Source: an uncultured Dehalococcoidia bacterium
Lineage (GTDB): Bacteria; Chloroflexota; Dehalococcoidia; DSTF01; JACRBR01
Direction: 5' to 3'
Assembly: GCA_964458665.1 (NCBI GenBank)
Contig: CAYWOO010000042.1
Coordinates: forward strand, 2,987-66,986
DNA: 64,000 nt
Positions 3,708 to 47,897 of the stretch are shown here, one piece after another (the stretch's first letter is position 1; each line of letters opens with the position of its first letter). Both the position numbers and the translations under genes were made by a program. A model generated the notes under the pieces. That model was given only the letters and a program-made list of their open reading frames with translations, ran no database searches and was not told the DNA's origin.

Positions 3708-4781
3708 CTACAACCGCCAGCCTGTCCCGCGCGGCAGTCGCTCCGCGGCCGGCAGCAGTGCGTGCGGCTGGGCGTGCGGCTCGAGCTGGTACCAATAGGC
3801 GGTGCTGGAGTAGTCGTTCGAGAGATCGTTGGCGTGACCATGCTCGATCGTCACCTTGATCGATTCGCGGAAGTGGATCGGATCTTCGACGTGGAATCGG
3901 TACATCGAGTTCTTGCCCGACCACGGCCAGATATCGGTGCCGGAGTACACGGTGAGCCCGTGATACGGCGCCGAGAACGTCTTCGCCGGGCAGAACGCGG
4001 TGTTGAAGTAGTCCTCGGTGCCCGATCCGCGCAGCGTCAACTCGCCGTCGATCCAGATCATGTCGTCGCCTTCGCCGTACCAGTCGTTCTGCTGCTTCTC
4101 GAAGACATCGATGTTGAGGTTGCAGCCGACGTAGTGACCACGGCCGGCGGCTTCGAGGATGACGTAATTCCCTTCGCCCTCGATGTTCGGCCGCGTCCAC
4201 GCCTCTGCGCGCTCGTCGTTGGTGTGCGGCTCGCCCTTCTTGCCCCAGCCATCGGTCGGGTTTTCGCGCCGCCACTGCGCGTGGAAGTACGCTGCATCGC
4301 TCGGAGCACGATCGTACTCCTCGTAGTCGACGTAGAAGTACAGGATGAGGCTACGCTCGCCCTCGTTCGTGATGTCCACGCGGCCGCTCACGGCAAACGG
4401 CATCGGGAAGAAGCAGTTGAAGCTGCGGCCGTCGCGCGGACTCATGGAGAGCGGCTGGGACCAGAACTCGGCCATCATGCCGTGGCCGACGCCGAAGAAG
4501 TCGCCGAGCGGCGTCTCGACGCACGGCGACGCGGCGCCATCCCAGTACATCCTGAGCACGCTCCGGCGGAGGTACGCATCCTCGCGCGACATCGTCGTCA
4601 TCCAGATATGCCGCACGCAGCCAGGGCCGCGCAGATCGGCGATCGTGCGCGTCTCGCCTGGCCGGATGATCCAGAAGTCGGCGTTGCCGCCCGTCGCGTC
4701 CCACGACGATGCACGGTGGCTGCGCGCGTCGCGCAGCGTCGCAAGATTTCCGAGGCCGGCGTGTATCGCGTCCACGATCAC
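3708..4781 (-). CDS. DUF2961 / GH172-like family protein
   Basis: Family-typical blocks: LRDARSHRASSWD, VRHIWMT, PLGDFFGVGHG, FNCFFPMPF, YFYVDYEEY, GEGDDMIWIDGE, GTEDYF, MYRFHVEDPI. GTG 4781 overlaps the upstream stop (GTGA), suggesting translational coupling. Confidence 0.8.
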   Translation of the reverse strand: MIVDAIHAGLGNLATLRDARSHRASSWDATGGNADFWIIRPGETRTIADLRGPGCVRHIWMTTMSREDAYLRRSVLRMYWDGAASPCVETPLGDFFGVGHGMMAEFWSQPLSMSPRDGRSFNCFFPMPFAVSGRVDITNEGERSLILYFYVDYEEYDRAPSDAAYFHAQWRRENPTDGWGKKGEPHTNDERAEAWTRPNIEGEGNYVILEAAGRGHYVGCNLNIDVFEKQQNDWYGEGDDMIWIDGELTLRGSGTEDYFNTAFCPAKTFSAPYHGLTVYSGTDIWPWSGKNSMYRFHVEDPIHFRESIKVTIEHGHANDLSNDYSSTAYWYQLEPHAQPHALLPAAERLPRGTGWRL

Positions 4782-5095
4782 GCCGTCGCTACCGCGAACT
4801 CCTGCGCGATCACGGACTCGAAGAGCTTCACCTGCGGCGGCCCGGCGACGATGCCCATCATCGATGAGCCGCGGTGTCCCGCCGCGAACGCGGGGCTCTG
4901 CATCCACGCCATGAAGGCGTCACGGCTCTCCCACGTGCTGTGGCTGATGTACTCGCCCTCCGCGTCGCCCCGCAGCAGCGCGAAACGCAGAATGCCGGCC
5001 ACGTTTTGCAGATGCGACTCGCGGTTCTTCCAGACCTCCTCGAATTCACTCTCCTTGCCGGCTACGATCTTGAAGCTGTTCATGGCAATGAACAT
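4778..5095 (-). CDS. Antibiotic-biosynthesis-monooxygenase (ABM) domain protein
   Basis: About 105 aa with a ferredoxin-like ABM pattern (FIAMNSFKI...FEEVW...GFLRFALLRG...YISHSTWESRDAFMAW). ATG 5095 lies 9 nt after GGAG. Confidence 0.75.
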   Translation of the reverse strand: MFIAMNSFKIVAGKESEFEEVWKNRESHLQNVAGILRFALLRGDAEGEYISHSTWESRDAFMAWMQSPAFAAGHRGSSMMGIVAGPPQVKLFESVIAQEFAVATA

Positions 5096-5214: not shown

Positions 5215-6141
5215 TTACTTCGGGAAGCCCTGCATGATGGTGATAATCGCCGGCCCCAGGATGACGATGAAGAGCGTCGGGAAGATAAATATCACCAGCG
5301 GGAAGAGCATCTTCACCGGCGCCTTGTAGGCAGCCTGCTCGGCGCGCTGGCGGCGCTTCACGCGCAACTGGTCCGCTTGCACGCGAAGCACCGTGCCGAC
5401 GGAAGATCCCATCGCTTCCGCCTGAATGACGGCGTTCGTGAACTGGATGAGGTCCGGCACGCCAGTGCGCTCGCCGACTTCCTTCAGCGCATCGCGGCGC
5501 GACTTGCCGAGCGCGATATCGCGCAGCGCACGAGACAGTTCGTCGGAGAACGGGCCCTTCACCTTCTCGGCGACACGCGCCAGGGCCGCATCCAGCCCGA
5601 GGCCTGCTTCCACACAGGTGGTGATCAGGTCGAACGCGTCGGGCAGGCTCTTGATGATCGCGTTCTGGCGCGCCTTCGAGCGCGATCCGACCAGGTAAAA
5701 CGGCAGATAGAAGCCGATGAACGCGACACCGCCGGCCAGGGCGATCGTCATGCCGCTGACTGACGCGCCCGACACGACCACGATCGTGATCGCCAGCGCG
5801 GCGGAGGCAACCGTAGAGACGAGCACCATGGTGAGAAAGCCCTGCATGTTCATGGGCTCGCCCGCGTAGATGAGCTTCTGCTGCACGCCGCTGAGCAGCG
5901 AACGTGGAAGCAGACTGCCGAATCCTTCGGCGGCTCCATGCACGAACGGCGAAATGACCCGCTGGCCGAACGTCGGGTTCACAAGCGTCAGCTCGACTTC
6001 GCTGCCTCCGCGCTTGAAGCCTTCGAGGCGCTGGCGCGCGGCAGTAGCCGCCGACGACTGCCCGGACGCAGTGAGCCCCAGCAGCGCGAAGATAATTGTG
6101 CAGAAGACGGAGAACGCGATGAGCATCGCCATCGTGTCCAT
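5215..6141 (-). CDS. tadC: Type II secretion system F-family protein, TadC-like
   Basis: T2SSF domain with N- and C-terminal TM segments. It is the last gene of the cpaF-tadB-tadC series and lies 2 nt from tadB. Confidence 0.85.
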   Translation of the reverse strand: MDTMAMLIAFSVFCTIIFALLGLTASGQSSAATAARQRLEGFKRGGSEVELTLVNPTFGQRVISPFVHGAAEGFGSLLPRSLLSGVQQKLIYAGEPMNMQGFLTMVLVSTVASAALAITIVVVSGASVSGMTIALAGGVAFIGFYLPFYLVGSRSKARQNAIIKSLPDAFDLITTCVEAGLGLDAALARVAEKVKGPFSDELSRALRDIALGKSRRDALKEVGERTGVPDLIQFTNAVIQAEAMGSSVGTVLRVQADQLRVKRRQRAEQAAYKAPVKMLFPLVIFIFPTLFIVILGPAIITIMQGFPK

Positions 6142-6143
6142 GA

Positions 6144-7112
6144 TTACACCTCGATGTCCAGGATGCGCTGGATGATCATTACGCCGACCGTCTCCATAAT
6201 GACGGCGGCGACGAGCATGCCCTTGCCCGTGAGCGTGGTGAACAGCGGGTTGATATAGCCGGGGCTCATCACCTGGAACAGCAGGCCGACGCCGAGGGGA
6301 ATCATGCCAAGAACGATACCCGTGAGCTTCTGCTGCGCCGTCAGCGTCGCGATCTCTCCGCGGATGCGGATGCGCTCGCGCATGGTCTCGGCCACCGTGT
6401 CGAGAATCTCGCCGAGATTACCGCCGACCGTGCGCTGCACCAGGATGGCAGTCACGACGATATCCAGGTCGTAGCTGTCCGACCGCTCACTGAGCGCGAG
6501 CAGCGCCACTTCGGCGCTCGACCCGATGTTCATCTCGTGGATGGTGCGGGCCATTTCCGTCGAGATCGGGTGCGACATCTGCTCCGAGGCGGCGCTCATC
6601 GCTTGCAGCAGGCCGAAGCCGGCTTTCAGCGAGTTCGACATCATCGTTAGCGTCTCGGGGAGCTGCGAGTTGAGCTTCGCCACACGAGACGAGCGCCGAT
6701 GGTTCCGGTAGAACTTCGGCAGGTTGTAACCGATGACCGCGGCAGCGCCAGCAATGAGGAAGGCGAGCCAGCCGGACACGAGGAAGACGGGCACGATGGC
6801 GAATACGGCCGCCATGGCAAAGCGCATGACGATGTATTCGCCGGGACGGAGCGACATGTCGGCGCGCTCCAGCTCGTGCGCCAGTTTTTCGCCCATGACG
6901 CCCGGCGCCAGGCCGGAGAACATACTCTTGCCAGTTTTCGACCCGCGCAGTGCCTGCGGGCCGGCTTCCACAACGGAGGTACCCGCCATCAGGCCTTCGA
7001 GACGGCCGCGGACGTTCGAAGACGTGACGGTGTTGCCGTAAAACGCGTAGAGCGTCACGACGATCGTGGCCATCACGGAAAGCGCGGCGACTGCTGCCAA
7101 GTAGTCGAACAT
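6144..7112 (-). CDS. tadB: Type II secretion system F-family protein, TadB-like
   Basis: T2SSF membrane protein immediately after cpaF (1-nt gap). Confidence 0.85.
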   Translation of the reverse strand: MFDYLAAVAALSVMATIVVTLYAFYGNTVTSSNVRGRLEGLMAGTSVVEAGPQALRGSKTGKSMFSGLAPGVMGEKLAHELERADMSLRPGEYIVMRFAMAAVFAIVPVFLVSGWLAFLIAGAAAVIGYNLPKFYRNHRRSSRVAKLNSQLPETLTMMSNSLKAGFGLLQAMSAASEQMSHPISTEMARTIHEMNIGSSAEVALLALSERSDSYDLDIVVTAILVQRTVGGNLGEILDTVAETMRERIRIRGEIATLTAQQKLTGIVLGMIPLGVGLLFQVMSPGYINPLFTTLTGKGMLVAAVIMETVGVMIIQRILDIEV

Positions 7113-7113
7113 A

Positions 7114-8484
7114 TCAGGATCCTGCCGGTGTAAACATGTCTGACGGCAGGTGAATGCCGGCGACTTCGAATTTCTCGGCGAAACGCGGCCGGATCCCCGT
7201 CGTGCGCAGCTCGCCCAGGACGCGTCCGTCCGTGTCGATGCCCGTCTGCTCGAAACGGAACAGATCTTGCATGGTCACGACCTGGCCCTCCATGCCCGAG
7301 ACCTCCGCCACGCTTACGACCTTGCGCGTGCCGTCCGGGAAGCGGGCGATCTGGATCACCATATGGATGGCGGATTGCATCTGCTCGCGAATGGCCTTCA
7401 CAGGCAGCTCGAAGCCGGCCATCATCACCATGTTCTCGATGCGGGCGAGGGCGTCGCGCGGCGTGTTGGCGTGGACCGTGCCCAGCGAGCCTTCGTGGCC
7501 CGTGTTCATCGCCTGCAGCATGTCGAACGCTTCCGGACCGCGGACCTCGCCGACGATGATCCGGTCGGGCCGCATACGCAGGGAGTTGCGCACGAGGTCG
7601 CGCTGCGTCACCTCGCCCTTGCCCTCCAGCGACGGTGGCCGCGCCTCCAACGTGACGATGTGACCCTGCTGGAGCTGAAGCTCCGTCGGGTCTTCGATCG
7701 TGACGATGCGCTCGGTGTCCGGAATGAACGACGACAGCGCATTGAGCATCGTCGTCTTACCGGAGCCCGTACCGCCGGAGATGAGGATGTTCAGCTTGGC
7801 CTGCACGCAGGCCCGGAAGAACTCGGCGAGCTCGTTCGTCAGTGCGCCGGTGGCGACCAGGTCGCTAAAGGTCATCTTGTCGGCGCGGAACTTCCGGATC
7901 GTGATCGTCGGGCTCTTGGGGGCGACGGGAGGAATGATCACGTTGACACGCGAGCCGTCCGCGAGACGCGCGTCCACCATCGGCGACGATTCGTCGACGC
8001 GGCGGCCGAGCGGCGCGACGATGCGCTCCACGATCCGCATGATGTGCTGGTCGTCGCGGAAGCGCACCGAACTCAAGTAGAGCCGGCCTTCCTTTTCGTA
8101 GAAGACGGTGTCCGGGTGATTCACCATGATTTCTGAAATGCTGCCGTCACGAAGCAGCGGCTCCAGCGGTCCGAGGCCAAGAACTTCGTCAGCGACGGCG
8201 GAGACCAACTCGTCGCGCGTCGTGCCGACGATGCCCGGCATCTCCTGGGCGATCAGCGTGCGCGCTGCCTGCTCGACGGCTTCGCGCGCCTTGTCCTTGC
8301 CCAGACCTTCAAGCTTGTTCGGGTCCAACTCCTCGATGAGGCGCTGGTGAAGCGTGAACTTCAACTCGTTGAGGGCGACGACGTTCTGCGACAGCTGGCC
8401 TGGCCGCGAGGCGGCATTGTTCGAACCGCCACCTGTGACGCCGCCCGCCTGGATCTTTCGCGCCTGCCACTGGAACTGAGTCAT
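7114..8484 (-). CDS. cpaF: CpaF/TadA family pilus assembly ATPase
   Basis: Walker [10 protein letters not shown], Walker B and Asp/His boxes ([36 protein letters not shown]). Confidence 0.92.
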
Positions 8485-8508
8485 GCTACGTTCTCCTACG
8501 TTCGCTTA

Positions 8509-9702
8509 TCAGGCGGAGCGGCCGAGGACCCTGTCGAGGAACCCCCGCTTCTCTTGCCTGGTGCCAGTGAGCGCGTGCGCCAGTTCGATGATGGCGCGCG
8601 AGACGCGGGCATACGGCTTCGCCACGACGATCGGCTGGCCGAGTTGCGTGCTGCTCGAGACGCTGAGATCGTGTGGGATGCGCCAGAAGACGTCGTACTC
8701 CAGCACGCGCGAGACATCCTCCTCGCGAAGGCTGTTCGCCGCCGTCGAGTGGTTGATCATCAACTTGACCTTGTCTTCGGAAACACCGGCGGCGCGCAGC
8801 ATCTCCAGCGCCAACGCGGTGTCCTTAATACTGGCGATGTCCATGCTCGTCACCAGGAGGATCAGATTGGCCAGCTCCAGCGTCGCCGCGATCAACTCGT
8901 TGAACGTGCCCGGCGTGTCAATGACAACGTAGTCGTGCGTCTGCGCCAGCAGCTCAACGATTCGCTCGATGTGCTGCGGCGTCATGTTGCGCCATTCGGT
9001 AGGGTGCAGCGGCGCCGGCAGAATCGACACGCCGCTGTGGTGCTTAACCAGGAAGTCGCGGATCTTGTCGCGGTCGATGTCGTCGATCTTGCGCGCCACG
9101 TCGGCGATGCTCATCTCGACCGCGACGTCCATCATGATCGCGACATCGCCAAATCGCGTGTCCATATCCAGCAGGCAGACGTTCGCGCCGGTCATTTTGG
9201 CCAGGGTCACCGCCAGGTTGGTGGAGATGGTGGTCTTACCGATGCCGCCCTTGGCGCCGAATACGGTGATCACGGTGCCACGAGCGGCGGCCTCGCTGGT
9301 CAGGCCGTCGGCGCGCAGGCGCTTCTTCTCTTCCTGCTCCAGCACTCCGTACACGGCGCGGCTGAGGTCTTCCGGCTTCAGCGGCTTGACCAGATAGTCG
9401 CGGGCCCCGGCCACCATGGCGCGGCGGACGGACTGCGCATCGGCCAGCGACGAATACACAATCGTCGGGATGCCCGGCGCGACGTCGGCGAGCGATTCGA
9501 TCGTCTGGAGCGCAAGGGCGACGGGCTCTTCGACGGACACCAGGAAGACGTCCGACGGACGCTCCTTCGCGACCGTCACCGCTTCGACGCCGTATCCGCC
9601 TTCGCCCACGACCGTGAAGTGGGCAATCTGAACGGCGCGCTTCGTCTCGGCCCGACTTCCGAGGTCCGGGTCTACGGTGACGACTTCTGGATTTCTCGCC
9701 AT
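8509..9702 (-). CDS. CpaE/TadZ-like protein: atypical receiver domain plus ParA/MinD-type ATPase
   Basis: The N-terminal REC-like fold lacks the canonical acceptor (DVFLVSVEE). Next comes the deviant Walker A GAKGGIGKTT. Its position between cpaB and cpaF fits the call. Confidence 0.8.
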   Translation of the reverse strand: MARNPEVVTVDPDLGSRAETKRAVQIAHFTVVGEGGYGVEAVTVAKERPSDVFLVSVEEPVALALQTIESLADVAPGIPTIVYSSLADAQSVRRAMVAGARDYLVKPLKPEDLSRAVYGVLEQEEKKRLRADGLTSEAAARGTVITVFGAKGGIGKTTISTNLAVTLAKMTGANVCLLDMDTRFGDVAIMMDVAVEMSIADVARKIDDIDRDKIRDFLVKHHSGVSILPAPLHPTEWRNMTPQHIERIVELLAQTHDYVVIDTPGTFNELIAATLELANLILLVTSMDIASIKDTALALEMLRAAGVSEDKVKLMINHSTAANSLREEDVSRVLEYDVFWRIPHDLSVSSSTQLGQPIVVAKPYARVSRAIIELAHALTGTRQEKRGFLDRVLGRSA

Positions 9703-20144: not shown

Positions 20145-21323
20145 ATGCGTGGCCGATACGTCCGCAAGACCTGGCAGCACAACCCCGACCTCTACGCGCC
20201 CGCCCGCTATCGCAAGGCATGCACCTACGATGCTTTCATCCCCGATGGCGTCGAAGGCCTACAGCTCCAACTGCCCGGCGAACTCGTCGCAGCGATCTCG
20301 GAAGCCGAGAACGCGATCGCCCGCCTCAATTCCGGATCGACGCCTCATCTCGCTCCTCTTGCTCGTCTTCTCCTGCGAACGGAATCGATCGCATCGTCCA
20401 AGGTGGAAGGTCTACAGGTCAATGCTCGCGCTCTTGCGCGCGCCGAAGCAAAGCAGGATGCCGGGCGCAGCATCGGCGCCGACGCCGTAGAGATCCTGGC
20501 GAGCGTCGACGCGATGGAACTCGCGATCGAACGAGCGGTGGACGGACGTGACATCCAGCTAGGCGATCTGCGCGACATCCACACCGCGCTACTCGCGCGC
20601 TCCTCGCCCAGGATCGCTGGCAACATCCGCACCGTGCAGAACTGGATCGGCGGCAACGACCACAACCCCTGCGGCGCGGTCTTTGTCCCACCACCCCCGG
20701 AACTGGTCGGCGATTTGTTGGCCGATCTCTGCGCCTTCAGCAACGACGATGCGCTTCCACCGCTCGTGCAGGCCGCCATCGCACATGCGCAGTTCGAAAC
20801 CATCCATCCGTTCGAGGATGGCAATGGGCGCACCGGGCGCGCGCTCGTACAGGTCGTCCTGCGACGCAGAGGCATCGCGTCGTCGTACGTCCCGCCGATC
20901 AGCGTGATGCTCGCCAAGCACAAAGACACGTACTTGCTGGGACTGACAGACTTCCGCGGAGGCAACGTCGATGCGTGGCTCGCCGTCTTCGCGGAAGCGA
21001 CAGCATCGGCCGCTGCACTGGCGCGCCGCTACATCGGCCTGCTGGCCGAAACGCGAGAGCGATGGCGGGACCAACTGCGTACGATCCAGCCGCGCTCCGA
21101 CGCTGCCGCCTGGTCGATCATCGACCTCCTTCCAGCGCATCCCGTGATCACCGTACGCACCGCCGTCGCGGCGACTGGCCGCACACGGCCCGCCATCGTC
21201 AACGCGCTCGATCAACTCACCGCGACCGGCGTCCTGCTGCCGATCGCGGAATCGCCCAGAAACAGGGCGTGGGAAGCTGCCGGCTTGCTGGAACTGATCG
21301 TCGGCTTGGAAGAAGGAACGTAG
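20145..21323 (+). CDS. fic: Fic family protein (class II: N-terminal inhibitory motif; C-terminal wHTH-like domain)
   Basis: Fic core HPFEDGNGRTGRAL and the inhibitory-helix motif S-x-x-x-E-G (SSKVEG). Confidence 0.9.
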   Translation: MRGRYVRKTWQHNPDLYAPARYRKACTYDAFIPDGVEGLQLQLPGELVAAISEAENAIARLNSGSTPHLAPLARLLLRTESIASSKVEGLQVNARALARAEAKQDAGRSIGADAVEILASVDAMELAIERAVDGRDIQLGDLRDIHTALLARSSPRIAGNIRTVQNWIGGNDHNPCGAVFVPPPPELVGDLLADLCAFSNDDALPPLVQAAIAHAQFETIHPFEDGNGRTGRALVQVVLRRRGIASSYVPPISVMLAKHKDTYLLGLTDFRGGNVDAWLAVFAEATASAAALARRYIGLLAETRERWRDQLRTIQPRSDAAAWSIIDLLPAHPVITVRTAVAATGRTRPAIVNALDQLTATGVLLPIAESPRNRAWEAAGLLELIVGLEEGT

Positions 21324-42271: not shown

Positions 42272-43582
42272 ATGTCTCACACGACGACGGGACAGCCGCG
42301 TAAGGTGATCGGGCGAATCCTCTCGCTCGGCTTCCCGTTGCCCGGCCCGCAGGTCGATAACTACAACTTCCTCAGCGCGCCGTCGTTTTTCGATTACGAC
42401 GCGATCGTCGTGGACCCGCACGCGCTGTCACTCCTGATCGAAGGCGTGATCGACGGCTCCGCGGAAGCAGCGACATTTGCAAATCTACCGATCCGCAACG
42501 CGCCGCCCACACCCGCGACCGCCGCGCTGAGCGAGGTCCTGCTGCGGCGGCGCGACGAGACGCTGACGCTGCTTGCGAACGGCGGCGTCGTCGTGTGCTT
42601 CGCGCACCCGGCGGCGACGCATCGCGACATCGATGGGATCGAAGCGCTGGACGACTACTACTGGCTACCCGCGGCGCCGCAGCTGATCGCGGGCGATGGA
42701 TCCCAGGCGCACATTGTCGATTTCCAGCACCCGCTGGCGGCGTTCGTCCACGGGCAGCTCGCCAACATCGCATATCGCGCCCATTTCGCAGAGGCCGACG
42801 CGCGCGCCTGCGCCTTCGCGCGCAGTCACGGCGGCGCGGCGATCGGCGTCGAGCTGCCGGTCGAGCGCGGCCGCGTGATCTTCGTGCCGGCGCTGAAGGC
42901 CGCGCTTTCGGGCGACGGACGCTACGCGATGTCGGACGCGCTCCAGGCGGGCATCCGCCGCGCGCTGGGCGTCGTGGCCGAGGGACGGCCGCCGGGATGG
43001 TTGAGCATCTACCCCCTGCCAGGCCTCGACGAGCGAGTTGTAACGCTGGAGGCCGCGCGCCAGTCGCGCGACGAAGCACAGCAGGCGCTCGATGCGGCGG
43101 AATCATCGCACGATGAGCTTGCGCGATTCCAGCGGCTGCTCTGGCAGGAGGGCGCGATCGGGCTCGACGACGTGGTGATCGACGCGCTGCGACTGATCGG
43201 CCTCGAGGTGTACGCCACGAACCGCCAGGAGATGGAGCTGCACGTCGACGGCGCAACGGTACTCTTCGAGATCGACGCGAGCGAGCATCCCATCGACCTG
43301 GCAGCGCATCATCGCCTGCGCCAGCGCATCGAGCGCGCAATCGAGCGCCGGGGCGAGGCGCCGCGCGGCGTCCTGTTCGTCAACGGACAGCGGCTCGAAT
43401 CGCCATCACTGCGCGCTCAGCAGGTGAGCGAAGCGCTGCGCCTCGCCGCCGAGACGATGCGTTACTGCATCGCGCCGACATCGTCGCTGTATGAGGCGGT
43501 GGCGGCGCAGTTGCGCGGCGACGCCGAAGCGGTCGCGGCGTACCGGCGGGCGCTCGTGGCAACAGACGGCGTGCTGGCGTAG
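42272..43582 (+). CDS. Hypothetical protein (436 aa), no family recognised
   Basis: Long ORF with genome-typical codon usage between galU and an SDR gene. Apparent three-part layout: an alpha/beta N-terminal half, a short coiled-coil-like segment (LEAARQSRDEAQQALDAAESSHDELARFQ), and a C-terminal region resembling restriction-endonuclease-like folds. Confidence 0.6.
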   Translation: MSHTTTGQPRKVIGRILSLGFPLPGPQVDNYNFLSAPSFFDYDAIVVDPHALSLLIEGVIDGSAEAATFANLPIRNAPPTPATAALSEVLLRRRDETLTLLANGGVVVCFAHPAATHRDIDGIEALDDYYWLPAAPQLIAGDGSQAHIVDFQHPLAAFVHGQLANIAYRAHFAEADARACAFARSHGGAAIGVELPVERGRVIFVPALKAALSGDGRYAMSDALQAGIRRALGVVAEGRPPGWLSIYPLPGLDERVVTLEAARQSRDEAQQALDAAESSHDELARFQRLLWQEGAIGLDDVVIDALRLIGLEVYATNRQEMELHVDGATVLFEIDASEHPIDLAAHHRLRQRIERAIERRGEAPRGVLFVNGQRLESPSLRAQQVSEALRLAAETMRYCIAPTSSLYEAVAAQLRGDAEAVAAYRRALVATDGVLA

Positions 43583-43627
43583 ACTTGCGCCGGCGCAACT
43601 GCTCGACTGTGAAGGAGAACAATCGCT

Positions 43628-44413
43628 ATGTCATCGAAGTGGGCGTTGGTGTTAGGCGCGTCGTCCGGATTCGGAGCGGCGACCTCGATCGAGCTTGCGA
43701 AGGCCGGGTTCGGAGTCTTCGGCGTGCACTTCGACATGCGGTCAACCATGCCGAACGCCGTCGCCGTGCAGGACGCCGTGAAGGCCGCCGGGCAGGACGC
43801 GATGTTCTTCAACATCAACGCCGCCGACGCCGGGAAGCGCGCAGCGACGCTCGACACGATCCGCGAAAAGATCGGCGCCGACGGGATCGTGCGCGTGCTG
43901 ATGCACTCGCTGGCGTTCGGGACGCTGCTGCCGTTCATCGATGACAATCCGAAGGCGCGGATCAGCCAGATGCAGATGGACATGACGTTGAACGTGATGG
44001 CGCACAGCCTGGTGTACTGGTCGCAGGACATGGCGACGCGCCGGCTGCTGGGCAAGAACAGCCGCATCTTCGCGATGACCAGCTCGGGCTCGACGCGCGT
44101 CATCGCGTCATACGGCGCCGTGTCCGCGGCGAAGGCCGCGTTGGAGTCGCACATCCGCCAGCTGGCGTTTGAGTTGGCGCCGATGGGCGTGTCGGCCAAC
44201 GCCGTCCGCGCGGGCGTCACCGACACGCCTGCACTCCGCCGCATCCCCGGCGGACCCGAACTGCACCAGCGCGCGATGGAACGCAACCCCAGCGGCCGCT
44301 CGACAACGCCGGAAGACGTCGCAAGGGCGATCGCCCTGTTCTCGGAAGAGAATGCGTACTGGATGACCGGCAACGTCATCGGCGTCGACGGCGGTGAAGA
44401 GCTGTCAGCGTAG
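43628..44413 (+). CDS. SDR family oxidoreductase
   Basis: Rossmann motif LVLGASSGFG and catalytic YGAVSAAK. Confidence 0.85.
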   Translation: MSSKWALVLGASSGFGAATSIELAKAGFGVFGVHFDMRSTMPNAVAVQDAVKAAGQDAMFFNINAADAGKRAATLDTIREKIGADGIVRVLMHSLAFGTLLPFIDDNPKARISQMQMDMTLNVMAHSLVYWSQDMATRRLLGKNSRIFAMTSSGSTRVIASYGAVSAAKAALESHIRQLAFELAPMGVSANAVRAGVTDTPALRRIPGGPELHQRAMERNPSGRSTTPEDVARAIALFSEENAYWMTGNVIGVDGGEELSA

Positions 44414-44429: not shown

Positions 44430-44598
44430 CCCGGAGCGGGGGCATTCAGCCCGCGCGGTTCCACGCTGATCGCCCGTCGGCGTAGTTGGTGGTTCGTAGT
44501 TTGTAGTGCGTAGTTTGTAGTGCGTAGTTGGGGCTTGCGGTTCTGCGATCCCGGAGCGCGGGCATTCAGCCCGCGCGGTTCCACGCTGATCGCCCGTC
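44430..44598 (+). repeat. Composite repeat: two 49-nt direct repeats (44430-44478, 44550-44598; one mismatch) flanking a heptamer array (44482-44544)
   Basis: Each DR is CCCGGAGCG(G/C)GGGCATTCAGCCCGCGCGGTTCCACGCTGATCGCCCGTC, containing the GCGCGGGC-attca-GCCCGCGC hairpin. The heptamers are GTAGTTG GTGGTTC GTAGTTT GTAGTGC GTAGTTT GTAGTGC GTAGTTG. Confidence 0.9.
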
Positions 44599-44612: not shown

Positions 44613-45479
44613 CTAGAGCTCGATCGCCGCGCCCGCCTCATCCAGCATCTCGACGGCGCGGGCGAGCTTGCCGTTCCCTTCGAAGCGGCTGACGAAGTAC
44701 AGGCGCTCGATGACGCGCACCGTCTCGACGGTGGAGTCCGGCGCGAGCAGAACGGCGATCTCGTCGCGCGTGCTGCGGACTCGGTCGAGCAAGTACGGGC
44801 TCGGCTCGCCGCCCCCGGTGAGGACGAGACACTCGATGTCGGTCTGGAGCGCGGCCAACTGCACGTCCGTCTTGTCGAAGCGCGTCACGACGCAGGTGCG
44901 CGCGCGGTTGCCGAAGTACGGCGACGCGGCATCGGACGACACCGTGCCGATCATCACGACGTCGAACGAGCCGCGGTCGCCCTCACCCGCGAGCCAGCGC
45001 GCTTTGAGCGCGACAGCGACATCGGTCACGGACGGCGCCGCCAGCGTGCGATCTTCGACCAGCGCCGTCAGCACGCCGGAACGCGCACCGACCGAAGCAA
45101 TATCGGCAGCGGGCACGCGCGTGACGATCGTCCCCACCAGCGCAGCCGCAGCCACGTCGGTAGCGGCAAACTTCGCGTGGCCGACCGCGACCACGCGCGC
45201 CTTCAGCGTCTCCGCGAGCGACTTGACGGATCCAGCAGGCGCCTCGAGCACGACGTCTCCCGCAAGCTTCGCGACAGCCGCCGCCGCGACAGGCTTCCCA
45301 GGCGTCACGACACCTTCGAGCGCCGCAAACGCGGCCGCATCGGCGGCAGCGCTATCGTCGCCATCGAGACGCGCCAGCGTCACGGCCTTGCCGTCGCGCA
45401 CCATGCGGTACGCGATCGCCGCCGCGATCAGACTGCGCCCCACGCGCGGCTCCGACGATGCGATGAGCAGAATCGACAT
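44613..45479 (-). CDS. DRTGG domain protein with a BioD/CbiA-like N-terminus (phosphotransacetylase N-terminal-like)
   Basis: The N-terminal ILLIASSEPRVGRS P-loop-like segment and the C-terminal CLVLTGGGEPSPYLL (DRTGG-type) block. Confidence 0.65.
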   Translation of the reverse strand: MSILLIASSEPRVGRSLIAAAIAYRMVRDGKAVTLARLDGDDSAAADAAAFAALEGVVTPGKPVAAAAVAKLAGDVVLEAPAGSVKSLAETLKARVVAVGHAKFAATDVAAAALVGTIVTRVPAADIASVGARSGVLTALVEDRTLAAPSVTDVAVALKARWLAGEGDRGSFDVVMIGTVSSDAASPYFGNRARTCVVTRFDKTDVQLAALQTDIECLVLTGGGEPSPYLLDRVRSTRDEIAVLLAPDSTVETVRVIERLYFVSRFEGNGKLARAVEMLDEAGAAIEL

Positions 45480-45537
45480 GGGCGGAGTATAACAACGGCC
45501 GCCCGTACGAGCAGCGCTGCGGCCGAACCTGCGCCGG

Positions 45538-45595
45538 TTGCCGCCGATCGGGCCACCGATACAATCGGGTTCACGCCGAGGTAGCTCAGTTGGTA
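45538..45595 (+). pseudogene. Orphan copy of the tRNA-Phe promoter plus the first 21 nt of tRNA-Phe (truncated tRNA fragment)
   Basis: TTGCCG-16 nt-TACAAT, then GCCGAGGTAGCTCAGTTGGTA (45575-45595), identical to 47032-47052. Similarity stops abruptly at 45596. Confidence 0.8.
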
Positions 45596-45802
45596 ATGCT
45601 ACCCGCGCTTTTGCAAGCTAACGCCGCGAACACGAGCTGTTCACTTAGAGTGGTCTACTAATAACGCTAACAGAGCACGTGCTGCTGCGCGGACGCGAAG
45701 TCGTCCGTCTCGGTGATGCTGCTCGCCTTCGCGCTCGCCTTATTGAGCTGTTGACCCTGCGCGCGGTACGCGGAACGTCGCCGAGAACGGCGATCAGCGC
45801 AG

Positions 45803-46900
45803 CTACGGTGCGTACGCTTCCATACTTGGAGATCCATAGTAGTCTCCGCCGACTGCGTACAGAACGTCACTTACCACACCTACGCCGACCGGGAATCGGC
45901 CTGTGAGCATCGGAACACTCGGCGTCCAACCGTTCGAGACGGGGTCGTACGTTTCTACCGTCTTCAGATACTGATTGTCCTCCTGGAAGTCGGGGTTGAA
46001 GCCGCCAACGGCGTACAGGATATCATTCACGACGCCGACACCCAGCCCATATCGTTCCATCGGCATGGAGGCTCTCTTTGTCCAACTGTCGGTTACGGGG
46101 TCGTAAGCCTCAACCGTGTGCACTAACTGCGTGGGCGAGTACCCGCCGACGGCATAGAGGATGCCACCTATCACACCGACGCCGAGGCCGGAGCGCCCAT
46201 TGGTGGCGGACATCGACGCCTTCGGTGTCCAGCTGTCGGTGACGGGGTTATAGGCCTCTAGCGTGTTCAGGTTGAACAAGAATTCTCCGGAGAAGAATCT
46301 GCCCCCAATCGCGTAGAGGATGCCGTCCACCACGCCGACGGCGACCTCTTGGCGGGCCGTGGGCATTGGTGCCTTCGTCGTCCAAGTGTCGGTAGTTGGG
46401 TCATACGCTTCGACGGTGTTCAGCGTACCCTGGGCAGCATCGACGACATGGCCTCCTATGGCGTAGAGGATGCCATCTACGACGCCTACGCCCGGCCCAT
46501 AGCGGGGCGTTGGCATCGATGCTTTCGTCGTCCACGTGTCGGTGGTAGGGTCGTAGGCCTCGACCCGACCCTCAACGTTGCGCCCGACGGCATACAGTTT
46601 TCCGTCTGCTACTCCGACGCTGTGGTCACTGCCGCCTAATCCCAAGATCGATGCTTTTGCCGTCCATGTAGGGATCGGTGTCGGAGTCGGAACTGCCGTC
46701 GGCAGCGGGGCCAGTTGACCTACGTGTGCCAGCGTCTTCAGCACATCAGACAGCGAAACCGCGCCGGTGTGATCCACGTCGGCGTCGTACGCCGTGACGG
46801 GTTGCGGCGGCGCCGCCAGCACGTAGCGCCGTACGCTGAAGGTCGCCGCGATCGCGACGATCGTCGCGCTGATGATGGATGTGATGATGATCGTACGCAT
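45803..46900 (-). CDS. Kelch-repeat (beta-propeller) protein with an N-terminal TM/signal anchor and a dockerin/EF-hand-like motif
   Basis: ATG 46900 follows GAGGAGGGGG. About six repeats with (D/G)G(I/K)LYA(V/I)GG and VEAYDP.TD.WT. It also has DADVDHTGAVSLSDVL. GC is visibly lower than surrounding genes (31 G+C in 46261-46320). Confidence 0.85.
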   Translation of the reverse strand: MRTIIITSIISATIVAIAATFSVRRYVLAAPPQPVTAYDADVDHTGAVSLSDVLKTLAHVGQLAPLPTAVPTPTPIPTWTAKASILGLGGSDHSVGVADGKLYAVGRNVEGRVEAYDPTTDTWTTKASMPTPRYGPGVGVVDGILYAIGGHVVDAAQGTLNTVEAYDPTTDTWTTKAPMPTARQEVAVGVVDGILYAIGGRFFSGEFLFNLNTLEAYNPVTDSWTPKASMSATNGRSGLGVGVIGGILYAVGGYSPTQLVHTVEAYDPVTDSWTKRASMPMERYGLGVGVVNDILYAVGGFNPDFQEDNQYLKTVETYDPVSNGWTPSVPMLTGRFPVGVGVVSDVLYAVGGDYYGSPSMEAYAP

Positions 46901-46993
46901 AGTGTCCCCCTCCTCAGATGGAACCACCATACGCTTATCCAGCAAGCCCGTCTACGCACGCCGCTAGCGGTGCCGTTATCATGCGGCGACAGG

Positions 46994-47022
46994 TTGCCGC
47001 CGATCCGGGGCGCCGATACAAT
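46994..47022 (+). promoter_or_regulatory. tRNA-Phe promoter (TTGCCG-17 nt-TACAAT)
   Basis: The -10 ends 9 nt before the mature tRNA 5' end. Confidence 0.6.
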
Positions 47023-47031
47023 CGGGTTCAC

Positions 47032-47107
47032 GCCGAGGTAGCTCAGTTGGTAGAGCACACGACTGAAAATCGTGGTGTCGCCAGTTCAATTCTGGCCCTC
47101 GGCACCA
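47032..47107 (+). tRNA. tRNA-Phe (anticodon GAA), CCA encoded
   Basis: Full cloverleaf by hand: acceptor GCCGAGG/CCTCGGC, D arm GCTC/GAGC, anticodon stem CACGA/TCGTG with loop CTGAAAA, T arm GCCAG-TTCAATT-CTGGC, then ACCA. Confidence 0.97.
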
Positions 47108-47153
47108 TCACGCAAGGGTTAGCTGGTCAGCATTTCAGCTTGTCAGCGTTTCT

Positions 47154-47185
47154 GCCGCCAGCGACTCGCTGGCGGCTTTTCGTTG
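47154..47185 (+). terminator. Intrinsic terminator after tRNA-Phe
   Basis: GCCGCCAGCG-act-CGCTGGCGGC followed by TTTTCGTTG. Confidence 0.75.
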
Positions 47186-47213
47186 CGGCGTGAGCGCCGG
47201 GGAGGTTGCGGCC

Positions 47214-47897
47214 ATGGACGATACGGCGGAGCTGTTCCGGAAGGTCGGCGTCGGCGACGCGGCGGGCGTGGCCGAGATGGTGCGCTACGTGCCGGAACTG
47301 GCGCGCGCCCGCGATGCCTCGTCGCTGTCGGTGCTGCAATTCGCCCGCTACATGGGCCAGGACGCCGTGCTGGAGCAGCTCATCGAGGCGGGGCCGCCGC
47401 TCGATATCTTCGAGGCGGCGACGATCGACCGCGTCGATCTGGTGCGGGCGCTCCTTGCCGGCAACGCGTTGCTTGCCACGGCGTACTCCTCGGACGGGTT
47501 CACGGCGCTGCACTTCGCCGCGCACTTCGGCAGCCTCGGCGCGATCAGCGCGCTGCTGGAGGCCGGAGCCCACATCGAGGCAGTGACGCGCAACTTCCTC
47601 ACGAACATGCCGCTGCACGCCGCCGCCGCCGGAGGCCGCATGGACGCCTGCCGCCTGCTGCTGCGCCACGGCGCCGACCCGAACGCAAAGCAGCACGGCG
47701 GCTTCACGCCGCTGATGACGGCGGCCTTCAACAACAGCCGCGAGCTTGCGGAGATGCTGATCGCCCGCAACGCCAACATCGAGGTGCGCAACGACGACGG
47801 GAAGACGGCCGCGGACGTAGCCGCCGGCATCGGCAACATGGAGCTTGCGGCGCGATTGCGGCTCGGGGAGACGGTCGTGGATCGGGGGAGTTCGTAG
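47214..47897 (+). CDS. Ankyrin-repeat protein
   Basis: Several repeats with G(F)TxLHxAAxxG...LL..GA (GFTALHFAAHFGSLGAISALLEAGA, MPLHAAAAGGRMDACRLLLRHGADPN, GFTPLMTAAFNNSRELAEMLIARNANI). Confidence 0.88.
   Translation: MDDTAELFRKVGVGDAAGVAEMVRYVPELARARDASSLSVLQFARYMGQDAVLEQLIEAGPPLDIFEAATIDRVDLVRALLAGNALLATAYSSDGFTALHFAAHFGSLGAISALLEAGAHIEAVTRNFLTNMPLHAAAAGGRMDACRLLLRHGADPNAKQHGGFTPLMTAAFNNSRELAEMLIARNANIEVRNDDGKTAADVAAGIGNMELAARLRLGETVVDRGSS

Follow-up and report, generated by a model that had tools for sequence, protein, structure and literature searches.

The tRNA-Phe locus

The locus described here comprises the tRNA-Phe gene of an uncultured Dehalococcoidia bacterium (Chloroflexota) and the DNA immediately upstream of it, in a 64,000-nucleotide (nt) stretch of contig CAYWOO010000042.1 (assembly GCA_964458665.1). 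The whole stretch that was analyzed is referred to as the window, and positions are given in its coordinates unless another contig is named. Reading toward the tRNA, the locus contains a DRTGG-domain gene, a promoter followed by a truncated tRNA-Phe (the stub), a Kelch-repeat gene on the opposite strand, and a second promoter leading into the intact tRNA-Phe gene (Table 1).

Table 1 Features of the tRNA-Phe locus
Feature	Position	Strand	Basis or description
DRTGG-domain gene; conserved left neighbor, transcribed away from tRNA-Phe	44613–45479	−	Pfam DRTGG, 2.7e-16
Left (orphan) promoter copy	45536–45574	+	TTGCCG 45538–45543, 16-nt spacer, TACAAT 45560–45565
tRNA-Phe stub, nt 1–21	45575–45595	+	Identical to 47032–47052
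Conserved non-coding junction block, stub-side end of insert	45596–45665	+	Homology to L084 and L091/L103
Whole inserted segment, 1,396 nt	45596–46991		Absent from relatives; lowest GC of its size in window
Kelch cargo gene, 365 aa	45803–46900	−	Pfam Kelch_1, 1e-65
Right promoter copy	46992–47031	+	TTGCCG 46994–46999, 17-nt spacer, TACAAT 47017–47022
Intact tRNA-Phe (GAA)	47032–47107	+	ARAGORN; Rfam
16-nt tandem repeat (47121–47152) and intrinsic terminator hairpin (47154–47176), T-rich tail TTTTCGTT	47121–47176	+	

An initial annotation of this DNA had reported a direct repeat of about 60 nt at 45536–45595 and 46992–47052, with the left copy holding the first 21 nt of tRNA-Phe and the right copy running on into the intact gene. 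The repeat was found at exactly these positions; 58 of 61 alignment columns are identical, and the last 40 nt match exactly. Each copy consists of a sigma-70-like promoter, a 9-nt leader, and tRNA-Phe nt 1–21. The copies were said to differ only in a short central patch, and all three differences (one 1-nt indel and two substitutions) do fall within the promoter spacer, where the left copy reads GATCGGGCCACC and the right copy GATCCGGGGCGCC. The promoter arrangement TTGCCG-N16-TACAAT proposed for the repeat is correct for the left copy, but the spacer of the right copy is 17 nt. Downstream of the repeat, the left copy exits into ATGCTACC, and the right copy into GAGCACACG, the remainder of the tRNA.

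The sole tRNA gene of the window is tRNA-Phe(GAA), which was identified by both ARAGORN and Rfam (Rfam tRNA, 74 bits); ARAGORN called no tRNA at the left copy (45575–45595). The stub ends at the boundary of the D-loop and the 3′ side of the D-stem. Within 45300–47400 the only sigma-70-like sites are those of the two repeat copies. A chance origin of the repeat was excluded, because its 38-nt core occurs as two exact copies in the window and not once in 100 shuffles. The annotation had also raised the possibility of a common dispersed element; this was excluded as well, as there are only two copies in the window, and exact scans of public collections returned one locus each, in every case a single copy at the tRNA-Phe of a relative.

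From this layout, transcription of the intact tRNA would start at the right promoter, whose 17-nt spacer is optimal, and end at the hairpin downstream of the gene. The orphan left promoter, if active, would read through the stub and the adjoining motif and then antisense into the 3′ end of the Kelch gene. The 16-nt tandem duplication that had been noted just downstream of the tRNA is present as described. The same region occurs in relatives L082, L083, L096, and L103 (numbers with the prefix L are our designations for related loci); because it is found in relatives without the insert, we regard it as old and unrelated to the insertion.

The inserted segment and its cargo gene

The only open reading frame (ORF) of 80 aa or more in the segment that had a family match is the Kelch gene. 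Its probable start is the ATG at 46900, which follows a GGAGG sequence; an upstream TTG at 46945 is a less likely start. The gene is made up of six DNA repeat units (repeat family D2). An AlphaFold model of the protein (pLDDT, the predicted local distance difference test score, 86) contained an N-terminal membrane helix and 24 strands, which we read as six four-stranded blades, that is, a membrane-anchored six-bladed propeller. Comparison of the model with the Kelch domains of KLHL20, KLHL2, and Keap1 and with the SAKe6 designs gave target-normalized template modeling scores (TM-scores) of approximately 0.8. The gene is thus the one that had been predicted, a single opposite-strand gene for a six-bladed Kelch protein with a membrane anchor. 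A dockerin-like motif had been predicted in the same protein; it has no Pfam support, the only match being a sub-threshold one to EF-hand_9 (E = 0.04). The best Kelch homologs are no more than 55% identical and are spread over many phyla; with no protein match above that level, no close homolog pointed to a donor of the gene. The Kelch insert was found in a single sequencing run.

The composition of the segment differs from that of its surroundings, as the initial annotation had proposed from its visibly lower GC content. The insert has a GC content of 0.608, against 0.664 for the window, which places it in the bottom 0.16% of windows of equal size. The GC content at third codon positions (GC3) of the Kelch gene is 0.719, compared with 0.837 ± 0.041 for 42 window genes (z = −2.9), and its synonymous codon use also deviates (z = −2.4). 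The junction that follows the truncated copy, which had been described as AT-richer, has a GC content of 0.49 over 45596–45670. Neither the insert nor the 46 window proteins scanned yielded an integrase, recombinase, or transposase domain, and there are no terminal inverted repeats at the insert ends. By gene content (MutS, MutL, UvrB, PPDK, etc.) the window is ordinary chromosome.

Support for the assembled arrangement

The exact Kelch protein was found on a 1,477-nt Logan contig of run SRR9952630, which corresponds to window positions 45566–47042. This contig begins and stops inside the repeat, as expected of a k = 31 graph. Such contigs cannot phase a 40-nt exact repeat, and the pairing of the left and right spacer patches with their exits is not readable from them. 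The Logan depths in this run were 7.7 for the left flank, 8.4 for the insert, and 8.3 for the right flank. The alternative pairing would need a 1.46-kb circle with no replication gene, present at chromosomal depth. Because of the equal depth, the implausibility of such a circle, and the presence of the same architecture in independent assemblies (see below), the arrangement was treated as real.

Insert-free sites in relatives

Relatives were located with the promoter plus tRNA core and by searches with the DRTGG protein, followed by examination of the contigs carrying DRTGG homologs. Homologs of DRTGG adjoin tRNA-Phe in L082–L089, L094–L096, L099, and L107–L110. The promoter plus tRNA core led to one genome locus, in a Chloroflexota metagenome-assembled genome with approximately 80% DNA identity (L001, the same as L083). 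There the DRTGG gene, a single promoter, tRNA-Phe, and an ankyrin gene are contiguous, and the 1.4 kb is missing. Sites without the insert were found in L082, L083, L085–L089, L094, L095, L096, and L107–L109; in these, the distance from the DRTGG start to tRNA-Phe is about 95–120 nt and contains one promoter. These insert-free relatives represent at least 12 Chloroflexota assemblies, with DRTGG proteins 62–91% identical to that of the window. The two closest relatives by DRTGG, L094 (91%) and L095 (85%), are both insert-free. In synteny alignments a gap at the position of the insert was seen with L001/L083, L082, L094, L095, and L096, and a contig from a rock metagenome (X4) joins position 45534 straight to 46992, its promoter and tRNA being 100% identical to the right copy of the window. 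The flank upstream of the left copy is orthologous to the flanks of the empty-site relatives.

Because the segment is absent from relatives and deviates in composition, it is best read as acquired DNA and not as a local duplication. The insertion proposed in the initial annotation is thus supported by an uninterrupted DRTGG/promoter/tRNA-Phe locus in relatives. Its alternative, a duplication followed by a deletion, fits neither the absence of the intervening DNA from relatives nor the finding, described below, that the promoter copies of L084 come from different clades. The statement that no integrase remains holds in that none was found in or near the insert; that one was formerly present is an assumption.

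Two of the related contigs, L112 and L113, stop at or before tRNA-Phe. The L113 SPAdes contig ends at its position 9042, exactly at the −10 box of the tRNA-Phe promoter, which could reflect a repeat-induced break, and hence another occupied site, or a break at sequence shared between genomes.

The 3′ side of tRNA-Phe is also variable (window 47190–47897). An ankyrin gene had been noted after the tRNA; it is present, but since L083, an empty-site relative, has one too, it is not part of the insert. The ankyrin gene was found only in the window and L083. After tRNA-Phe, the sequences of L082, L096, and L103 go straight to a 274-aa gene, and L094 has a protein with a twin-arginine translocation (TAT) signal.

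The same slot with other cargo in other lineages

The relatives also included loci where other genes take up the site. One is the complete chromosome L084 (OY969567.1), whose DRTGG is 68% identical; the order there is DRTGG, promoter plus tRNA-Phe nt 1–38, an insert of about 1.35 kb, a second promoter, and the intact tRNA. The stub ends at nt 38, the last base of the anticodon loop, and the cargo is an S-adenosylmethionine (SAM)-methyltransferase gene antisense to the tRNA. Contigs approximately 92% identical to this cargo (L084 3917–4689) were found in two mine-drainage metagenome runs, X15 and X16; because their flanks do not match those of L084, the cargo gene also exists in another context.

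In L099 (a JGI contig; DRTGG 82% identical), a decayed promoter and stub (tRNA nt 1–38) are followed by a cargo ORF and then by a promoter and the intact tRNA; a Logan contig, L100, agrees, so that two independent assemblies contain this arrangement. The stub is heavily decayed (about 12 of 38 positions). The cargo is a 214-aa ORF without family assignment, co-oriented with the tRNA, and the orphan promoter, which has kept its −10 element and faces this ORF, may have been co-opted. A classical island abuts this tRNA-Phe on its 3′ side; the part covered (L099 1–4900), which does not reach the far end of the island, has a tyrosine integrase (3776–4900), an HTH_17 excisionase-like gene, an AAA_25 protein, and an RVT_1+Trypsin_2 reverse-transcriptase protein.

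L091/L103–L105 have a third cargo upstream of an identical promoter and tRNA, here a lipoprotein-like ORF of 259 aa, and a TauE gene as left neighbor. No stub was demonstrable at this type of locus; in L103 a candidate decayed stub located between TauE and the motif aligned no better than shuffled sequences did. In L101 (5940–6000) and L111 (approximately 830–915), DRTGG keeps the −35 hexamer and six bases of the tRNA promoter and is then followed by unrelated DNA carrying an alpha-amylase or Usp gene. L101 and L103 are from the same sample, and the L103 tRNA has a complete promoter. If, as we infer, L101 and L103 belong to one genome, the simplest account is that this genome had an ancestor carrying two promoter copies.

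No integrase was found in the inserts of L084, L099, or L103. PADLOC and NCBIfam did not specifically identify any cargo as a defense gene; a match of the L084 methyltransferase to a "mad2" model was due to its methyltransferase domain only. The breakpoints at these loci cluster at the promoter spacer, at tRNA nt 21, and at tRNA nt 38. Taken with L084 and L099, the window locus shows that tRNA-Phe in a Chloroflexota clade is a recurrent, reverse-oriented site of insertion, used in at least two other lineages.

Native and imported promoter copies

The two promoters of L084 differ enough for their origins to be compared. The left promoter is identical to that of L107, the nearest empty-site relative, at 31 of 39 positions, but to the right promoter of the same locus at only 23 of 39. 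The right promoter in turn matches L082, a member of the clade of the window (clade A), at 37 of 39 positions and L107 at 28 of 41. Because the left copy matches the nearest relative and the right copy matches another clade, these alignments show that in L084 the stub-side promoter is the displaced native one and that the tRNA-side promoter came with the insert.

In the window the right promoter is identical to those of L083 and L103 at all 38 positions compared. The left spacer shares the C of GGGCC with L094, L095, and L110 and has two private changes. This weaker signal, a single informative site, is consistent with the same polarity: the left promoter is probably the displaced native copy, and the right promoter was probably imported with the insert.

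A shared junction and a GCGAAC-N7-GTTCAC motif

The DNA that follows the stub is conserved between loci. In the window it contains an inverted repeat, GCGAAC (45626–45631), a 7-nt spacer, and GTTCAC (45639–45644), followed by TTAG.G.GTCT. The motif spans approximately 50 nt, at 45616–45660 in the window, about 4765–4808 (minus strand) in L084, and 44–90 in L091. In three loci with unrelated cargo ORFs it lies downstream of the ORF, toward the stub-side end; in L103 it occurs without a tRNA stub alongside. There is one copy in the 64-kb window and one per related locus, and the 7-nt spacer differs in all three copies.

The block common to the window and L084 reads ATGCTAC.CGCG.TTT....AGCTA.....GCGAAC.......GTTCACTTAG.G.G(G)TCT, with one extra G in the window. 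Identity over the junction block is 74% in 62 nt between the window and L084 and 79% in 34 nt between the window and L091/L103; for the distal block, L103 and L084 are 81% identical in 47 nt. Both L084 and L099 leave the tRNA after nt 38 into GCACC..GAACA. The junction in the window, GGTA|ATGCTAC, is that of L084 with 36 nt missing (tRNA nt 22–38 plus 19 nt). At the other end of the insert, a block of 95 nt upstream of the right promoter is shared, at 85% identity, by L084 (3655–3750, minus strand) and L103 (L091 1037–1130); it carries a hairpin, CCGTCGG-GGACN-CCGACGG, and is absent from the window.

Several candidate identities for the motif were rejected. There was no Rfam match, folding z-scores ranged from −0.6 to +1.2, and covariation is weak (a 6-pair hairpin with one compensatory pair), so a known RNA or stable structure is not indicated. 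The motif is not the 3′ end of the TauE gene, as the TauE stop in L103 lies 80 nt upstream, nor the end of any gene (TauE or integrase), since the copies have no shared frame or period-3 signal and the frame from the stub is closed by TGA. A tRNA 3′ fragment and an attC site were ruled out by inspection. Scanning of 185,579 species genomes for the exact motif pattern returned only the genome of L084 itself and one chance hit in a coding region. Four exact-pattern scans of IMG/VR found neither the motif nor a promoter plus tRNA-Phe 5′ part plus motif; distant copies could escape exact scans of either collection.

Other features of the window

In the neighborhood of the locus, relatives have an extra gene between a 436-aa gene and a dehydrogenase gene (L001 1350–3028; L099 7955–9322, where it encodes an FAD/amine-oxidase-like protein of about 455 aa); the window lacks it (43582–43628). 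An exact 14-nt tandem duplication, TTTGTAGTGCGTAG, lies at 44500–44527, in the spacer that separates the short-chain dehydrogenase gene from the DRTGG 3′ end. Two further features are ordinary chromosomal ones unrelated to the insert: a Tad/type-II-secretion-like cluster at 5215–9702 (two T2SSF, one T2SSE, and a ParA-like response regulator) and a Fic/DOC protein at 20145–21323.

Origin of the insert

Our preferred explanation, held tentatively and with rather less than even confidence, is that the segment was acquired horizontally and entered by host homologous recombination within the promoter/5′ region of tRNA-Phe. The incoming DNA would already carry a promoter, the 5′ part of the tRNA, and the junction block, and would recombine with the chromosomal tRNA-Phe in the shared segment; the layout corresponds to a Campbell-type event or an allele replacement. 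The product would have the order DRTGG, native promoter plus dead stub (nt 1–21), junction motif, Kelch gene, imported promoter, and whole tRNA-Phe. The essential tRNA would thus stay whole and be read from the right-hand promoter. An occupied allele, or a minicircle formed by recombination of its repeats, would then carry portable homology arms; the allele could be copied into the empty site of a relative, and it could be lost again precisely through recombination of the repeats, the 60-nt copies probably leaving the insert prone to such deletion. The stub and junction most likely arose once, by an unspecified event, at tRNA nt 38, and the window version would be a further 36-nt deletion. The promoter and tRNA would be the best available homology, because they are identical or nearly so across lineages whose genes are approximately 80% identical. 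This explanation is consistent with the empty sites in relatives, the lack of a mobility enzyme or terminal inverted repeats, the foreign composition, the recurrence with other cargo, the native left and foreign right promoter of L084, the promoter remnant in L101, and the shared junction. The direction of import in the window (from one informative site), the recombination enzyme, and the role of the motif are all inferred.

Several observations weigh against entry by homologous recombination. The homology available for crossover is short, 40–60 nt in the window and, because the left promoter of L084 is native, only the 38 nt of tRNA in that genome; such lengths are near or below those usual for efficient RecA-type recombination. 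The assignment of the left copy as native and the right copy as foreign rests, in the window, on one nucleotide. Simple copying of alleles does not explain why the same boundary blocks enclose three or four different cargo genes. No excision joints or mixed population were seen for the window or L084 in the k = 31 contigs, and no donor or minicircle was observed. A site-specific enzyme is favored both by the motif, which resembles a protein-binding or core-type site, and by the stubs of L084 and L099, which stop exactly where the anticodon loop ends.

Such an enzyme could be an integrase using att (attachment) sites in reversed orientation and acting in trans or since lost, the main alternative, which we consider unlikely but which accounts for several of these features. 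Its phage-type site (attP) would comprise the right-end block, the promoter, tRNA-Phe nt 1–38, and the GCACC... motif, and the inserts would be single-gene units mobilized in trans, like cis-mobilizable elements or integron cassettes, or else integrase-less remnants. In its favor, the stubs of L084 and L099 both end with the final base of the 7-nt anticodon loop (nt 38), and tRNA att sites classically cross over in this loop (PMC8371274); the window stub, which stops at nt 21, does not fit. The same junction is found in distant lineages, each with a native left promoter, and conserved blocks (the motif and the right-end block) flank the repeat like attP arms, the motif having 6-bp inverted repeats around a 7-bp spacer, although that spacer varies among the three copies of the motif and the GCACC after nt 38 does not mirror the anticodon stem (TCGTG). 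Integrases are active at tRNA-Phe in this clade, as the tyrosine integrase abutting its 3′ end in L099 illustrates, and there are precedents for integration into the 5′ half with a promoter supplied by the element (PMC6563490, PMC8371274). Yet none of the four inserts carries an integrase and none of the 46 window proteins scanned is one, the inserts are compact single ORFs unlike random deletion remnants, and the exact scans found no attP in IMG/VR and no further motif in the species genomes. A proposal that we regard as rather unlikely would let either host recombination on portable homology or a recombinase acting in trans do the work: the inserts would be miniature, integrase-less, single-gene cassettes of a kind not described before in Chloroflexota, bracketed by the duplicated, ultra-conserved tRNA-Phe promoter/5′ part and carrying the core-site-like motif, that leave as minicircles of about 1.4 kb and re-enter the 5′ half of tRNA-Phe in other lineages together with a promoter on which the tRNA then depends.

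In a further explanation, which we judge improbable, the window lineage underwent a single homology-facilitated illegitimate recombination, in which linear DNA from a relative with a Kelch gene upstream of its tRNA-Phe was anchored at one end in the tRNA/promoter homology and joined at the other at nt 21, duplicating the promoter and stub. Events of this kind are established in naturally transformable bacteria, no recombinase is present, other lineages have promoters identical to the right copy, and the end point at nt 21 differs from the nt 38 of L084 and L099. The donor end is not random, however; it starts with about 70 nt homologous to the post-stub block of L084, and the window junction is that of L084 with 36 nt missing, suggesting that the two share a common origin and that the window did not acquire its own by an independent illegitimate join. 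That the occupied state is ancestral for the clade, with the empty relatives having lost their inserts by repeat recombination, seems quite improbable to us. Such recombination would restore the empty site perfectly, three or four lineages in the clade of the window are or were occupied (the window, L099, and L101/L103 with L111), and the decay of the L099 stub implies that some duplications are old. At least six independent losses would nevertheless be needed, including in the two closest relatives, and the 58/61 identity of the window copies would require ongoing gene conversion; the insert composition is foreign, the right promoter of L084 is clearly from another clade, and the cargo genes are unrelated to one another. 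The pattern so far is one of occupied lineages at scattered tips, each with a different, compositionally foreign cargo. Least credible, and in our view highly improbable, is that the tRNA region was duplicated in tandem locally and then suffered a deletion, or that the 40-nt exact repeat gave rise to an assembly chimera. The repeat can break k = 31 graphs by its length, and the Logan contig is bounded inside it, leaving the pairing of patches with exits not directly readable. Against these readings, the intervening DNA is non-native, depth is equal over the flanks and insert, the other pairing entails the replicon-less circle, and the same architecture recurs in L084 and in the two independent L099/L100 assemblies.

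Comparison with known systems

Classical tRNA-associated islands and prophages duplicate an att sequence on the 3′ side of the tRNA, as set out in the passages of PMC8371274 and PMC6563490 that draw on Williams 2002. The present locus resembles them in having a tRNA-derived direct repeat around foreign DNA of deviant composition, an intact tRNA at one end, and empty sites in relatives, and in its use of tRNA-Phe, a frequent target; L099 has a classical island, with an integrase, on the 3′ side of the same tRNA. It differs in that the promoter and 5′ end, and not the 3′ part, are duplicated and in that the functional tRNA is read from the distal, probably imported promoter. In addition, the 1.4-kb insert has a single gene and contains neither an integrase nor an excisionase, nor remnants of either.

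The initial annotation had called insertion into the 5′ half unusual, and this is fair: integration into the 5′ half with an element-supplied promoter is rare but documented, for pTN3-like integrases and some archaeal proviruses (PMC8371274, PMC6563490). The archaeal examples of bacterial-type attachment sites (attB) in the 5′ half are those of pTN3-like integrases and the TKV4 and MVV proviruses (PMC6563490, PMC8371274). In bacteria, integration in the reversed orientation is, in the passages concerned, "seldom" seen (PMC8371274; PMC6563490, citing Zhao & Williams 2002). As in those elements, a 5′ fragment is left behind at the present locus, and the layout predicts a recombinant tRNA on an element-supplied promoter. 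Those elements, however, encode an integrase and are many kb long, whereas here there is one cargo gene and no integrase in cis. In pTN3-like elements, moreover, the att site lies inside the int gene, whose promoter drives the tRNA; here the promoter is a copy of the sigma-70-like promoter of the tRNA itself. Of the features by which such elements are recognized, no cognate integrase was found in cis and no attP on a free or complete element in the exact-pattern scans, and membership of the segment in this group is not established. What differs from the documented 5′-half cases is that the inserts at all four loci are single genes without a recombinase.

Integron cassettes and cis-mobilizable elements are, like these inserts, single-ORF units with varied cargo at one fixed site. 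In integron cassettes, as here, the cargo ORF is followed at its 3′ end by a conserved non-coding block containing an inverted repeat; theirs, attC, is 57–141 bp long and consists of R″/L″...L′/R′ boxes with a GTTRRRY core. The block described here has no attC structure, and its arms are 7 nt apart. Candidate boxes in 45596–45670, AGCTAAC and GTTCACT, violate RYYYAAC/GTTRRRY, are spaced by approximately 16 nt, and form no stable fold (by inspection). IntI, attI, and Pc are likewise missing, and there is one unit per genome, bounded by tRNA-derived repeats, with no array.

Insertion sequences and transposons are characterized by a transposase, terminal inverted repeats, and a target duplication of 2–15 bp; none of these was found, the repeat being 60 nt long and derived from the tRNA and promoter. 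The signature of homology-anchored capture, in which one of the two copies has recipient ancestry and the other donor ancestry, was found, strong in L084 and weak in the window, where it consists of one single-nucleotide polymorphism. Hotspots of gene turnover are kept by homologous recombination in conserved flanks, which are core genes of kilobase length. The present locus is similar in its variable content between conserved sequences, its lack of mobility genes, and the precise loss or gain of DNA, but its "flanks" are a 40–80-nt duplicated piece of the tRNA gene itself. We know of no described case in which a duplicated tRNA promoter plus 5′ stub serves as portable homology.

Genes for tRNAs are classic landing sites for mobile DNA, and in nearly all cases the 3′ end is replaced and the promoter of the gene is kept. 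The locus described here, with its parallels in at least two to three other Chloroflexota lineages, indicates that the opposite solution has been used repeatedly, with the newcomer bringing the promoter and the start of the gene. If the proposed mechanism is correct, very short, ultra-conserved segments of RNA genes would serve as portable homology, or as a new type of att site, between fairly distant relatives. Islets this small would escape island finders keyed to integrases and 3′ tRNA fragments, and an orphan promoter with its stub could pass for a pseudogene in annotation or could drive antisense transcription into the cargo gene. The finding is of moderate interest for mobile-element biology and for genome annotation.

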